From a virus (Duplodnaviria; Heunggongvirae; Uroviricota; Caudoviricetes): 20,837 nt of DNA. Below the pieces are notes generated by a model. The model saw nothing but the letters and a program-made list of their open reading frames with translations. It had not been told where the DNA came from and made no database searches. The DNA is taken from IMG/VR virus record IMGVR_UViG_2537562191_000053. One strand, 5' to 3'. The position numbers and the translations under genes are program-made. Positions 7,481-13,744 of the stretch are shown piece after piece; position 1 is the first letter of the stretch; each line of letters opens with the position of its first letter.

Positions 7481-8114
7481 GTTCACAGATAAAACACTCT
7501 CCAGGAAACCCGGGGCGGTTCAATCAGGGCGATTAACATCGCCTTTTGCTGCTTCATAGCCTGCTTCTCCTTGCCTTTCGGCACGTAAGAGGCTAACCTA
7601 CATGTGCAAAGCATGAAATTGGCCTCAGATTAATGTTAAGCGTCTTGCCGGACGCGTAATGTTAACTGGGGCTTTTCTCTATCTGCCTTTTGGTGTTCAT
7701 GCCTGAGGCAGATAGCCTCAAGCACCCGCAGCAATTCTAACTATCCAATAGATCAATGCCAACTTCTTTTCCTGCAACATCTCTCATCAGAAGTGACCCA
7801 AATTCATCCAATCAGCACAAAAGAAACATTTAAAGCGTGAATGCTACCGAACGTTCATTTCAATTACATCGTTTTGATTTTTAACAGTTTTCACCTCAAC
7901 AAATCAAATGGCATTAGCATTCATCATGGAAGAAAGACTGATAAAAATGATCATTTTCAATGACTTATGATCACACCGGGTATTGCCAAGTCATTCCTTT
8001 TACGCCAGGATACCCACAAGTGAGTAGTCGAGGAGAGTTTGCCAATTTTTGCGATATAAATTTCAATGTCCGAAGAACCATTAATTGTTAATTGATTCTG
8101 TATAAGGTATTAAC

Positions 8115-9212
8115 ATGACAATTTCATATATTCCTATTCTGAAAGCGAAACGTTCTGAGTTATCAGCTTTATCGCAGCTATCCATTGAAAAGAAATCAAA
8201 AATTTTGCCATTACTCGAAATTGAACCAGTGCCAATTGACCCTGATTCAGGTATTGCCTTAAAGAGTTATAACGAGACTCTTATAGAGTTCGGAAAGAAA
8301 GTCTCAAAATCTTGCTCAGATATGCAAGGTGTTTATATTGATGGATTATTAATTGAAGAGCATTTTATTTCTCCTGAAGATCATTACCCTATAATAAATG
8401 CGGTTAATCAAGTTAGAGATATGGAGATAAGAGTTATTCCTGTCAGTTCACCAACTCGCCCATCTAACTATAAAAGAGCGATTGATGAATTAATGCAGAA
8501 TGAAATATGCTTGAGATTAACCACGTTAGATCTGGTTAACCCACAATTAATAACGCATTACATTAATCATCTGGGAATTCCTTTATCAAATATTGATATA
8601 ATTATTGACTTAAGAGATGAGTTAACCGAGGATAAAATTAATTCCGGCGAACTATATACTTTGGCAATGGGATTGATAAACAATCTGGCGCACCTCAATG
8701 AATACAGAAAAGTGATTCTTTCTGGGGGTTCATTTCCTACAGATCTCAGTGATATTTCTGTTGGTCTATATTCTCAACCTCGAATCGAGTGGATTTTATG
8801 GCAGAGTTTAATGAATAGAAAAGAACTTGCCAGAAATGTGATTTATAGTGATTATGGAGTACAGCACCCCGACTTTAATAGGCTTTCGACGCGATTCCCT
8901 AGCGTATCTGCCAGCGTCAGATACTCTGGAGATAATGACTTTTGGGTATTTCGAGGAAGAGTAGCTAATCGCTTTGGTTATGAACAATATGGTAAACATA
9001 GTGAGGATATTCTTGCTCATCGAGAATATTCAGGGCCTACATTCTGTGCGGGAGATAGAGACATAGAATATTATGCAAACGAGTATCAAGCCTACAAAGC
9101 CAATCCCTCTGGTAACTATAAATTTGGTAGCCCAGAGGTATGGCGTAGGATTGGGCAAAACCATCACATAACTAAGGTTGTTGAGCAACTCGCCACTCTT
9201 TACGGGCTTTAA
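8115..9212 (+). CDS. Hypothetical 365-aa protein in AT-rich island; candidate sensor/partner of a two-gene defence-like module (tentatively Beta-protein/sce7725-like, unverified)
   Basis: ATG with AAGGT RBS; codon-dense and strongly AT-rich; N-terminus MTISYIPILKAKRSELSALSQL. No Walker, HNH or methylase motifs seen. Family resemblance is from memory only. Confidence 0.75.
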   Translation: MTISYIPILKAKRSELSALSQLSIEKKSKILPLLEIEPVPIDPDSGIALKSYNETLIEFGKKVSKSCSDMQGVYIDGLLIEEHFISPEDHYPIINAVNQVRDMEIRVIPVSSPTRPSNYKRAIDELMQNEICLRLTTLDLVNPQLITHYINHLGIPLSNIDIIIDLRDELTEDKINSGELYTLAMGLINNLAHLNEYRKVILSGGSFPTDLSDISVGLYSQPRIEWILWQSLMNRKELARNVIYSDYGVQHPDFNRLSTRFPSVSASVRYSGDNDFWVFRGRVANRFGYEQYGKHSEDILAHREYSGPTFCAGDRDIEYYANEYQAYKANPSGNYKFGSPEVWRRIGQNHHITKVVEQLATLYGL

Positions 9213-9750
9213 GTTTAACTCGAACAGCTTCACGAAGCTCGCCAACATCCATACTATTGGCGAGTTTTGACCATAAGACGCGTTTAGGTTTATTTTTCAA
9301 ATTCTGTAGCTCCCCTACATCACTTAATAGGGAAAGCAATTCATCTTTCCAAAGAAGCATTGTTAAGGAAAGTTTGTCCACTTGTGGATTCAACTTGCTA
9401 GTTCGAATTGTTTTTAAATGGATACCTTGCCGTGCACCTTGCGTAACTTGCTTTATCCCCCACCATGATGGAACTATGCTTAAAGCATCATAAAGATGGC
9501 AATCAGAGACAACCAAAGTTACTTTATCCATCACTGATGAGTAATGTTGCACCTGCGCTGGTAATCTGAGCAAGTTATCACTCTTGCTCTTCAACTCATA
9601 ACCATGTATAAGCCCATTGATCACTGCTATATCAGCTCTGCTAGCCCCTAGATTCATCGTAAACTCATCAATGATTAGGGTGTCAGGATCTTTATGATGA
9701 TCTCTCAGAATCTTGGCATGCACAGCCTTTCTTACATCAATGTCTCTCAT
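9172..9750 (-). CDS. PD-(D/E)xK nuclease-fold protein (192 aa); candidate effector of the module (tentatively sce7726-like, unverified)
   Basis: N-terminal region MRDIDVRK...IIDEF...RADIAVINGLIHGYELKS carries the E...D...ExK restriction-endonuclease-like signature. Its 3' end overlaps the convergent 365-aa gene by 41 nt. Weak RBS. Confidence 0.75.
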   Translation of the reverse strand: MRDIDVRKAVHAKILRDHHKDPDTLIIDEFTMNLGASRADIAVINGLIHGYELKSKSDNLLRLPAQVQHYSSVMDKVTLVVSDCHLYDALSIVPSWWGIKQVTQGARQGIHLKTIRTSKLNPQVDKLSLTMLLWKDELLSLLSDVGELQNLKNKPKRVLWSKLANSMDVGELREAVRVKLKARKEWRVAQQP

Positions 9751-9782
9751 ACCATAGTTGCGCTTTCATCGACTCTCTCAAG

Positions 9783-9801
9783 CCATGATTCTATATCATG
9801 G
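9783..9801. promoter_or_regulatory. Palindrome CCATGAT-tctat-ATCATGG, 33-51 nt upstream of the nuclease gene; candidate operator overlapping a TAGAAT -10 element
   Basis: Perfect 7-bp arms read directly; the minus strand reads TGGCAT-N17-TAGAAT around it. Confidence 0.35.
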
Positions 9802-10055
9802 TTCGCATGAATGCCATTTGATATGACCAGTGGTTAAACATTGCACAGAAAAGTGGATGTGTATTTTAACAAAAGCAATGACGGCTAACCATGTTGGTAT
9901 GTCGATAAAATGTTTCAACGTAAGCATTATCTGTTCCGCCCTTTCAGACGGCCTCCTGATGTTCTGAGGGTGCAGAATCCCTCCGGTTAAGGGTTTAATA
10001 AAAATCGTTTCTGATTTAAATCTTCAGTATTTAGTTGTTAGTCGGTTTATAGCCT

Positions 10056-10367
10056 TTATGCTTCGGCCTTATTTCTCAGCCATACACAAACCGGGCCATC
10101 TTCGGTGTCATGTATTGAACCAATAAACCATCCATTGCCCTCTGGTCGTTCCGGTTCCCATGCAGAAATATCAGCATCACACGCATCAAGGTCAGCACAT
10201 CCTTCATCTCTGAAGCAGAGGACGTATTGAAGATTATTTTCCTCCATCCAGGCGTTAAACTCTTCCGTTGAAATATATTCCCGACCGTCACAGAATTTTT
10301 CATATTCAGGATGCGTCCAGCAGCCATATTCATCACGTACTACTGGTATTTCTTTAATTTCATTCAT
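10056..10367 (-). CDS. Hypothetical phage protein (103 aa, acidic, Cys-containing)
   Basis: Packed head-to-tail with upstream genes (8-nt overlap); normal GC. Confidence 0.55.
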   Translation of the reverse strand: MNEIKEIPVVRDEYGCWTHPEYEKFCDGREYISTEEFNAWMEENNLQYVLCFRDEGCADLDACDADISAWEPERPEGNGWFIGSIHDTEDGPVCVWLRNKAEA

Positions 10368-10614
10368 TTCTGTTCTCCCACGTTTTCAGACTTTCACCAC
10401 AGAACGGACAAAATGAAACCCGAACTGGTAATTTAGAAAATTCACCGGAACGCAACATCACAAAATCAGGACCGCGAGTTAAACTCTCATTCCAGATTTT
10501 GTATATCAGCAGACCTTTTCGCATCGTGTATTCAGCATCATGCTCAAGGGACTTTGCCAGTGCTGCACATGGTTCTATCTTGTTGCCATTAACCTGGCAT
10601 TTTGATTCACTCAC
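10360..10614 (-). CDS. Hypothetical phage protein (84 aa) with C-terminal CPFCG motif
   Basis: 4-nt overlap with the upstream gene; possible zinc-binding Cys pairs. Confidence 0.55.
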   Translation of the reverse strand: MSESKCQVNGNKIEPCAALAKSLEHDAEYTMRKGLLIYKIWNESLTRGPDFVMLRSGEFSKLPVRVSFCPFCGESLKTWENRNE

Positions 10615-11033
10615 CGCACCACCTCCTCAAAATTCCCCTGATAAAACGCCAGTACGCGCTGCATAACTTCGCTCTTCCGGCACTCGAGACAGATTATGTT
10701 CAGACGCCTGTCGTAGCGACGTATTTCTCCGTCAGGTAATGACCAGATAAGGTCCGGATCAACCGCAGATGGTTTCTTCAGCTTTGCCCTTGAGAGCTTT
10801 TTACGGGCATTTTGCCAGTCCTTACGCGCCTGTTCAGACGGGAATAACCCGTAACCAGAGTTGTATACATCGCCACTGGCAACCAGCTCTCTGGCCAGAA
10901 CGCTCATCAGATATCTTGTTGCCCCAGTTTTAGTTTCCAGTTGTCGTAACGTCTCGCGCCCACTCTGGCGTACGAGTTCAACAACCTGCCCTTTAATTTT
11001 CTCCTGCTCTTCTTGTGTAAAAACTTTTGCCAC
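10611..11033 (-). CDS. Hypothetical phage protein (140 aa), GTG start, in the replication operon
   Basis: GTG start preceded by AGGGGG; sits where lambda carries P/ren but has no helicase-loader motifs. Confidence 0.6.
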   Translation of the reverse strand: MAKVFTQEEQEKIKGQVVELVRQSGRETLRQLETKTGATRYLMSVLARELVASGDVYNSGYGLFPSEQARKDWQNARKKLSRAKLKKPSAVDPDLIWSLPDGEIRRYDRRLNIICLECRKSEVMQRVLAFYQGNFEEVVR

Positions 11034-11073
11034 AAGCCCTCCTGAAAATTACCTCATGACCAGAAATTAACAC

Positions 11074-12036
11074 TTACCCCCTGAAGCCCGGCGGAATTTC
11101 AGTGTCCGGTTCAGAAATGTGATTCACGCAACGCTGCGCAGGCGAACGCCCCAGGCGGATAACCAGTTCATCCCATTTTTCCCGGAGTTTTGCCGGACTC
11201 ATGATGTTTTTTACCCAGAACGAATCCCGCTGGAGACGCCCAAACATTTCACAAATTTGTCTGTGAGTTCTGCCATCCAGCATCCGCATTGTGCGAACGT
11301 CATTGGCCCATGCTGTCCAGTTGGGTTCTTTCGGTCTAGTGATCTCGCCATCATCGCTGGCCGCCTGCTCGTAAAGACTCACGATTCGTCCCCAGATCCA
11401 CTGTGCGCACACCAAATCTTCCTGACTTCCCCACTGGCGTTTTTTCGCACTGAACACAACCGCGTCAGGGTGTCGGGTTAAAAAATCCTGTTCAGCCGTC
11501 TGCGGGTCCGGTTGCGAAGCGTCCGGACAAGAAGATCTTTTATCTGACGGATCAGGTTTTAATACTGACGGATCGGGGTCAATCATCGCCCCCCTAATCG
11601 GCAGTTTTTTATCAACAGTTGATCCATCAAAATTTGACGGGTCAACCGTTGAGGGGTCAATATTTGACGGGTCAACTGTTAACGGGTCATTTTTTGCCGG
11701 GCTAATTTTTCTTTTCGGTTTATATGACTCACGCGCCGCCGCAGCAGCTGCTTCGAGTTTTTCCACATTAAGCCGATAGATATTGCTTACATTACGCCCA
11801 CCGACCTTACGCTCTTCCTTCGTCAGCCAGCCCTCTTTCGCCAGTTCTGCAATAGCCGATTTCACTGTGGATTCACTTCTTGCACCGATCTGACGCCGGA
11901 TAGTTTCAATGGCAGGCCATGACACGCCCTCGTCATTGCTGTAGTCTGCAAGACGGGCCATAACCGCCACCCTGGATAAGATCATGCCGGTGAAGGCGCA
12001 CCCTTCCCAGACAAGACCATGAAGCTTGCTGCTCAT
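11074..12036 (-). CDS. Replication initiator (lambda O-like / YdaU-like) with N-terminal HTH domain and internal origin
   Basis: Start moved to ATG at 12036 (GGGGG RBS 4 nt upstream; ORF track starts at GTG 12051). N-terminal winged-HTH-like segment, then repeated DPS peptides (NDPLTVDPSNIDPSTVDPSNFDGSTVD) encoded by the iterons. Confidence 0.75.
   Translation of the reverse strand: MSSKLHGLVWEGCAFTGMILSRVAVMARLADYSNDEGVSWPAIETIRRQIGARSESTVKSAIAELAKEGWLTKEERKVGGRNVSNIYRLNVEKLEAAAAAARESYKPKRKISPAKNDPLTVDPSNIDPSTVDPSNFDGSTVDKKLPIRGAMIDPDPSVLKPDPSDKRSSCPDASQPDPQTAEQDFLTRHPDAVVFSAKKRQWGSQEDLVCAQWIWGRIVSLYEQAASDDGEITRPKEPNWTAWANDVRTMRMLDGRTHRQICEMFGRLQRDSFWVKNIMSPAKLREKWDELVIRLGRSPAQRCVNHISEPDTEIPPGFRG
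11545..11730. repeat. Replication origin: about 6 iterons (core GACGG(G/A)TCAA) at roughly 15-16 bp spacing plus an adjacent AT-rich stretch, inside the O-like gene
   Basis: Repeats tgacggatcagg, tgacggatcggggtcaa, ttgacgggtcaac, tgaggggtcaa, ttgacgggtcaac, taacgggtcat read directly, followed by gtcattttttgccgggctaatttttcttttcggtttatatgac. Confidence 0.6.
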
Positions 12037-12058
12037 AAAACCCCCGAACACCGTGCTT

Positions 12059-13272: not shown

Positions 13273-13464
13273 ATGAATAGAGCCCTTTCACCAATGGTTT
13301 CTGAATTTGAAACCATTGAACAAGAAAACAGTTACAACGAATGGCTGCGTGCGAAAGTAGCAACGAGCCTTGCAGATCCGCGCCCAGCAATTCCCCATGA
13401 CGAAGTTGAGCGCAGAATGGCAGAACGCTTTGCTAAGATGCGCAAGGAACGGAGCAAGCAGTAA
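13273..13464 (+). CDS. Type II antitoxin (ParD-like), 63 aa
   Basis: ATG with GGAGGA RBS; stop lies 1 nt before the toxin ATG. Confidence 0.65.
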   Translation: MNRALSPMVSEFETIEQENSYNEWLRAKVATSLADPRPAIPHDEVERRMAERFAKMRKERSKQ

Positions 13465-13465
13465 A

Positions 13466-13744
13466 ATGTTACCCGTGTTATGGCTTGAAAGCGCAGATAC
13501 CGACCTAGATGATATAACTAGTTATATTGCTCGTTTCGACATAGATGCGGCTGAACGCTTATGGCAGCGATTAAGGGGTTGTGTGCTGCCGTTATCCGAA
13601 CATCCGTATTTATACCCACCAAGCGACAGAGTACCTGGCTTGCGTGAGATTGTAGCCCACCCTAACTATATAATTCTATACCGCGTAACAACATCAAGCG
13701 TTGAAGTAGTAAACGTGATCCACGCAAGACGCCAGTTTCCCTAA
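13466..13744 (+). CDS. Type II toxin, ParE/RelE family, 92 aa
   Basis: MLPVLWLESADTDLDDITSYIARFDIDAAERLWQRL...REIVAHPNYIILYRV...VVNVIHARRQFP, the characteristic ParE/RelE pattern as I recall it. Confidence 0.75.
   Translation: MLPVLWLESADTDLDDITSYIARFDIDAAERLWQRLRGCVLPLSEHPYLYPPSDRVPGLREIVAHPNYIILYRVTTSSVEVVNVIHARRQFP

Follow-up and report, generated by a model that had tools for sequence, protein, structure and literature searches.

A convergent beta-family and P4-cII-like nuclease gene pair of an Escherichia coli prophage shares a conserved antiparallel dual-coding junction

The window analysed here, the whole stretch of 20,837 nucleotides of virus record IMGVR_UViG_2537562191_000053, is a lambdoid (Rac-like) prophage of E. 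coli O111. It carries a beta-family gene and an sce7726/P4-cII-like gene which run towards each other and share their last 41 bp (Table 1). This tail-to-tail overlap had been predicted from the nucleotide sequence, and it is borne out by the ORF coordinates as well as by the RefSeq/PGAP annotation of E. coli O111:H- 11128 and strain C311, where both genes have identical ends and their products are named 'beta family protein' and 'sce7726 family protein'. As the stop codons set the 3' ends, the overlap is independent of the choice of start codons. Inside it, codon position 1 of one gene faces position 1 of the other, position 2 faces 3 and position 3 faces 2, and the wobble base of either gene is located opposite the second codon base of its partner. 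Of 5,426 complete E. coli genomes, 93 carry the two genes, which always occur together.

Table 1: Features of the beta–nuclease locus in window coordinates.
Feature	Position	Strand	Description	Basis
Region upstream of beta	7524–8114	+	non-coding, between the IS1203 end and the beta start; must hold the beta promoter	
Beta-family gene	8115–9212	+	365 aa; stop TAA at 9210–9212	ORF listing and sequence
Dual-strand 41-bp segment	9172–9212	both	beta T353–L365 and stop; nuclease L180 (part)–P192 and stop	
Doubly constrained core	9186–9204	both	beta Q358-L359-(A/S)360-x-L362 opposite nuclease R183-x-x-W186-R187-x188	
sce7726/P4-cII-like gene	9172–9750	-	192 aa; stop at 9172–9174	ORF listing and sequence
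Intergenic region upstream of nuclease gene	9751–10055	-	305 nt; weak sigma-70-like site, hexamers spanning 9817–9788	

The beta protein matches the Pfam profile PF14350 (Beta_protein) with an E value of 7e-52 and 177.4 bits (cut-off 27), its residues 5–356 aligning with positions 1–341 of the 342 in the profile. The closest PADLOC model is PD-Lambda-2_C (1.4e-40), and the 'beta' model of the same collection gives a weak match (1.5e-4). According to its AlphaFold2 model (pLDDT 91.9) the protein is TIM-barrel-like and has a long C-terminal helix (residues 340–363) that bears W343, N349-H350-H351, Q358, L359 and L362, and the alignment of homologues reveals the family-wide motif W....NHH...V..QL..L in this helix. 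A Foldseek search with the model returned generic TIM barrels only (E about 4e-5) and gave no specific function from the fold. The BLASTP alignment with the beta protein of P4 (23% identity, E=1e-8) extends through the C-terminal helix. At its extreme C-terminus the window's beta is variable, and the model has low confidence there.

The gene on the opposite strand encodes a predicted PD-(D/E)xK nuclease, with a restriction-endonuclease-like fold and the D...(D/E)xK motif, in which E29, D40 and E52-x-K54 are invariant. It scores 191.1 bits against NCBIfam NF033832 (sce7726_fam, cut-off 70), where residues 1–184 align with profile positions 1–183 of 184, and its homologues carry Pfam PF26915 (Phage_P4_cII). 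The family is large, with 5,266 representatives of 50%-identity clusters at an E value of 1e-3 or better. The protein was modelled by AlphaFold2 with a pLDDT of 93.7. Close to its C-terminus is the motif L180-K181-x-R183-x-x-W186-R187 (L-K-x-R-x-x-W-[RK]) with K181, R183 and W186 being invariant, and the final five residues, VAQQP, are variable and modelled with low confidence. On the basis of the profile matches and the AlphaFold2 models both ORFs are genuine genes.

For a view across the family we compiled about 238 loci from genomes, viral contigs and metagenomes (GC 29–71%), using the best 80 hits per scan. Hosts include Proteobacteria, Firmicutes, Acidobacteria, Chloroflexi, Myxococcota, candidate-phyla-radiation bacteria and Gastranaerophilales, and an actinophage is represented as well. 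All pairs have their two genes in convergent orientation, and about 232 of the roughly 238 loci show an overlap, of 11–266 nt and always with a length of 2 mod 3; these loci share ancestry, so that their counts are not independent events, and given the best-80 sampling remote members such as P4 cII may deviate more often than the counts suggest. The recurrence of a convergent 2-mod-3 overlap is far beyond chance. With the nuclease alignment as seed and one genome per species, 77 of 80 loci contained the pair, all of them convergent and 75 overlapping (11–158 nt). Viral contigs, searched with the nuclease alignment and P4 cII, gave 83 pairs, again all convergent, of which 79 overlap by 11–110 nt. 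A candidate-phyla-radiation homologue as seed for the metagenomes resulted in 75 pairs from 80 loci, every one convergent and overlapping (26–266 nt), and the search from the beta side with two distant beta homologues (27–30% identity) added three pairs, all convergent and overlapping, with overlaps of 44 and 29 nt. The viral loci without overlap are three P4-like ones with gaps of 26–27 nt and one with a 14-nt gap. Among the genome loci without beta, L017 and L050 have no more than about 200 nt of sequence beyond the nuclease gene, and in L010 no beta ORF was detected in the about 2.8 kb downstream of it; of the metagenome loci lacking beta, four break off 88 nt or less from the nuclease gene. 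Beta and the nuclease are adjacent in all loci with space for both, and the two can indeed be called partner genes, as the original prediction had done. That the overlap would be an oddity of one locus is contradicted by the survey, since it is an ancient feature of the whole family.

Some members of the collection deserve a separate mention. Homologues of sce7726 that have no detectable adjacent beta are found in Myxococcus phage Mx4 (L084, 2992–3561), where the gene belongs to a co-directional operon, and in L010 and L125 (Xenorhabdus koppenhoeferi); they are possibly stand-alone nucleases or loci after beta loss. In L251/L252 (2395–2997) and L253 (866–1477) an unannotated gene of about 200 aa abuts or overlaps the start of a distant beta homologue (27–30% identity) and may encode another partner of the beta–nuclease core. 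In Xenorhabdus vietnamensis (L011, about 1733–2752) the beta ORF is seemingly frameshifted just before NHH and the C-terminal helix continues in the +1 frame, reflecting either a pseudogene or a sequencing error.

A comparison of the C-termini contradicted the possibility that homologues end earlier and the overlap lies past the conserved domain, as the C-terminal motifs of both proteins are conserved across the family and fall inside the overlap. The register between them is preserved to the nucleotide in every lineage sampled. The codon-to-codon distance from beta H351 (9165–9167) to nuclease W186 (9193–9195) is exactly 30 nt in 69 of the 79 genome pairs, over the GC range of 29–71%; Gordonia phage Powerball and at least 63 of the 75 metagenome pairs share this spacing. 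Exceptions are three pairs with 33 nt, Sorangium with 54 nt and an enterobacterial expansion clade with 69 nt. Two genome loci with a spacer have distances of 70 and 71 and have also lost the phase, as expected because non-coding DNA parts their genes.

The per-position information content was determined from 52 non-redundant pairs with no more than 85% identity to each other across the junction. Single-coded wobble sites flanking the core contain about 0–0.2 bits, and the wobble sites of either gene at 9186–9204 are nearly fixed where they lie opposite a constrained base of the other gene. Nuclease Arg187 is encoded by CGA or AGA in 48 of its 49 occurrences, also at 60–70% GC, the variable codon 188 has T as third base in 50 of 52 pairs, and in 48 of 52 the third base of beta codon 359 is C. 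At beta codon 360 all 52 pairs have GCC or TCC; the Ala/Ser at this position is forced because W186 and R/K187 lie opposite. Where alternatives occur, at 9192 (G/T) and 9189 (C/A), they are those preserving the amino acids. Within the shared nucleotides both frames are therefore under purifying selection, and each gene freezes synonymous sites of the other.

A natural test of this constraint is found in an enterobacterial, Vibrionaceae and prophage clade (L012–L016, L132, L134, L150 and L162), in which the two motifs are moved apart by an in-frame expansion of 39 nt and the distance grows from 30 to 69. Overlap of the ORFs persists, with lengths of 11 or 59 nt. In this clade beta residue 360 is changed to Y, T, N or S, codon 359 to TTA, CTA or CTT and nuclease codon 187 to AAA or AAG, and L359, W186 and K/R187 are retained. 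That the motifs are kept despite the relaxed cross-strand constraint indicates that either protein requires its own motif, and the additional restrictions seen in the main type are thus by-products of dual coding. Examining a tandem duplication of the junction as origin of the expansion, we found its halves in L013 to be about 33% identical by eye, and a relic TGG is present at the ancestral position in L013 and absent from L015.

Convergent overlapping pairs in prokaryotes have been analysed before (Rogozin 2002; Palleja 2008), and the junction described here shares with them phase 1 (1-1, 2-3, 3-2), the commonest phase of natural convergent overlaps longer than 4 nt. Genuine long convergent overlaps are rare in bacteria, and those reported are conserved mostly among very close species. 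In contrast, the beta–nuclease junction holds its register to the single nucleotide in all lineages sampled and contains conserved residues of both proteins. Our literature search found no paper describing it.

In the prophage, the nuclease gene is co-oriented with the early operon, in which the replication genes are followed by DUF977 and then by the nuclease gene. Minus-strand genes occupy 9172–12051 of the window, opposite in direction to beta, and also in L250 beta is alone on its strand amid early-operon genes, with hok, DUF968, RusA and DUF1133 after the nuclease gene. Since beta is alone on the plus strand in the early operon, read-through upon induction would run antisense across it. 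The sigma-70-like site upstream of the nuclease gene comes from a scan that was not above shuffled expectation. Upstream of beta, in 7524–8114, no ORF of 50 aa or more was found, the ORFs there having 43 aa at most, and the consensus scan gave no promoter-like hit; this region is conserved solely in close E. coli prophages. An IS1203 copy (IS3 family; 6267–7480, plus strand, its end near 7523) separates a hok-like gene from the region upstream of beta and lies about 590 nt from the beta start. The same locus in E. coli C311 is free of IS1203 and shows hokD, then 552 nt, then beta. A second IS1203 copy (17093–18306, minus strand), flanked by plus-strand ORFs at 15641–17053 and 18385–19419, appears to split a prophage exonuclease gene that is intact in strain 11128 as a 2466-nt CDS (L001, 17242–19707); the downstream fragment has an Rv2179c-like 3'-5' exonuclease domain. 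According to the RefSeq annotation of L001 (14874–15345), a RelB/RelE-type toxin–antitoxin pair is located in the immunity-side region at about 13273–13744 (plus strand) of the window.

The two genes form the two-gene core of the P4 gop-beta-cII/PD-lambda-2 defence family, the module being a full member of neither system. It resembles P4 gop-beta-cII (Rst_gop_beta_cll in DefenseFinder; Ghisotti 1990; Rousset 2022) in having adjacent and convergent beta and cII homologues on a mobile element. The window nuclease matches P4 cII with E=2e-17 and the PADLOC model 'cll' with 2.4e-28, and P4 cII has the RefSeq name 'sce7726 family protein' and the Pfam family PF26915. The P4 locus itself has been shown to protect against lambda and P1, and its gop and beta behave like a toxin/antitoxin pair (Rousset 2022). 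It differs from the window in its gop gene, in a cII of 264 aa with an extra C-terminal region and in a 27-nt gap between the genes, which is occupied by a strong cII terminator and leaves no dual coding. A tblastn search of the whole window with P4 gop gave no hit near beta, the best one (E=0.04) being at 5093–5239.

PD-lambda-2 (Vassallo 2022) was published as three genes, a HigB-like A, an Xre-M78 peptidase B and a beta-like C, without a nuclease. The window has the C-like component and differs by having neither A nor B, as the A and B proteins of L019 found nothing at E<1 in a tblastn search against it. With no gop, HigB-like or Xre-peptidase homologue in the window, the module here consists of two genes. 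Of 79 homologous loci, 17 have PD-Lambda-2 B upstream of beta and nine of these also A, the nuclease being convergent and overlapping; in L019 (4001–7122) and 16 other loci such a PD-lambda-2-type operon is accompanied by a convergent cII-like nuclease gene that overlaps C by up to 158 nt. The published ECOR42 clone of PD-lambda-2 (QOYB01000002, 228989–232396) reaches only 396 nt past the C gene, and a convergent nuclease gene, if there is one in ECOR42, would be truncated in it. As HigB and ImmA/IrrE pairs on plasmids often occur without beta, that pair is a separable module.

How could such a junction have persisted? We consider it likely, from the sequence comparisons, that the overlap in the prophage is the local copy of an ancient antiparallel dual-coding junction which joins the core genes of a defence module and persists mainly by lock-in. 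About 30 nt encode the last turns of the beta helix (Q358-L359-x-x-L362) and, on the opposite strand, L-K-x-R-x-x-W-R, and any indel, inversion or deletion at the junction would damage both proteins. Separation of the genes would require an in-frame duplication or insertion, an event that seems to be rare and to be represented by the 39-nt clade, Sorangium and P4. Due to the shared junction beta and nuclease are inherited as one unit. The wide range of overlap lengths, 11–266 nt, shows that the stop codons shift along the sequence, and what lies outside the core is probably for the most part neutral read-on. Dual purifying selection together with mutational lock-in can account for the conservation without any regulatory role, and the overlap is not required for function because P4 defends with a spacer and a terminator. 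Lock-in and positive selection for the overlap cannot, however, be separated from sequence alone.

As the original prediction had pointed out, there is no space for a terminator between the genes, and the consensus scan found no terminator-like site near 9172–9212 either. Each transcript must therefore run antisense into the partner gene. Reciprocal antisense transcription would be expected to dampen expression and might help to set the ratio of beta to nuclease. In a rival reading, which takes up the coupling of expression suggested by the original prediction, the overlap would itself be a selected regulatory device: colliding RNA polymerases and/or RNase III cleavage of a duplex of the 3' ends would cause mutual repression, with a balance that shifts when infection or prophage induction changes transcription through the locus. 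We regard this as possible but rather unlikely. It would explain why no terminator fits or is detected and why convergence is universal, even in P4 and L011–L016, which have lost the core overlap (spacing of 39 nt or less), and it would fit beta as the only plus-strand gene in a long minus-strand early operon, with read-through antisense across it, as well as the resemblance of P4 gop and beta to a toxin/antitoxin pair. On the other hand, there is no conserved RNA structure, the conservation is codon-shaped and fully accounted for by the two protein constraints, P4 has its strong cII terminator between the genes, and promoter-like sites in the window are no commoner than in shuffled sequence.

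Convergent units with complementary 3' ends are found in the type I toxin–antitoxin systems txpA/RatA and bsrG/SR4 of B. subtilis and in lambda cII/oop, where the duplex triggers RNase III-dependent decay and one partner is a non-coding RNA. By analogy, they could be a model for how the junction might act at the RNA level, although here both partners are conserved protein-coding genes and a non-coding antitoxin is not part of the pair. A bolder proposal, which we think doubtful, makes the locked-in junction also a functional protein-coding cis-antisense switch, kept in phages and in all bacterial lineages of the survey, in which transcription of beta and of the nuclease would oppose each other and phage takeover or read-through of the early operon would tip the balance to the nuclease; its corollary would be that gop-beta-cII and PD-lambda-2 form one superfamily around the beta–nuclease core, PD-lambda-2 having an unrecognised fourth gene.

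The highly conserved nucleotide block at 9186–9204 might suggest a conserved DNA or RNA element, for instance a bidirectional terminator or a protein-binding or recombination site, that is merely crossed by the tails of the ORFs. This is very improbable, as the conserved positions are first and second codon positions of one or the other frame, the block splits into two retained protein motifs in the 39-nt clade, and RNAalifold found no consensus structure on either strand in 52 aligned junctions; together with the consensus scan this led us to reject a terminator or RNA element at the junction. Least credible of all is a recent, lineage-specific read-on past the true C-termini after stop loss and without significance, since the differing overlap lengths (11–266 nt), the variable terminal residues of low model confidence in both proteins and the finding that most long convergent overlaps are 3' extension artefacts (Palleja et al. 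2008) are outweighed by the invariant K181, R183 and W186 and the conserved Q358, L359 and L362 inside the 41 bp, by the same register in every lineage sampled and by protein identities down to 25–45% at GC contents of 29–71%, which show that the loci are not contaminants or recent transfers of one sequence. The suggestion that the tails could be dispensable or lineage-specific extensions is contradicted by these residues, and the alignments together with the register analysis ruled out that they are non-conserved.

In summary the beta–nuclease junction offers a clean natural model of antiparallel dual-coding constraint on two folded proteins, with the uncoupled clades as a built-in control, and it raises the question whether obligatory antisense transcription sets how strongly an effector and its partner are expressed. 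Annotation pipelines must leave this convergent overlap as it is and not 'correct' it, even at more than 40 bp. The overlap is also a simple genomic signature for finding the beta–nuclease core, and beta together with a cII-like nuclease is the minimal core common to gop-beta-cII and many PD-lambda-2-like operons.
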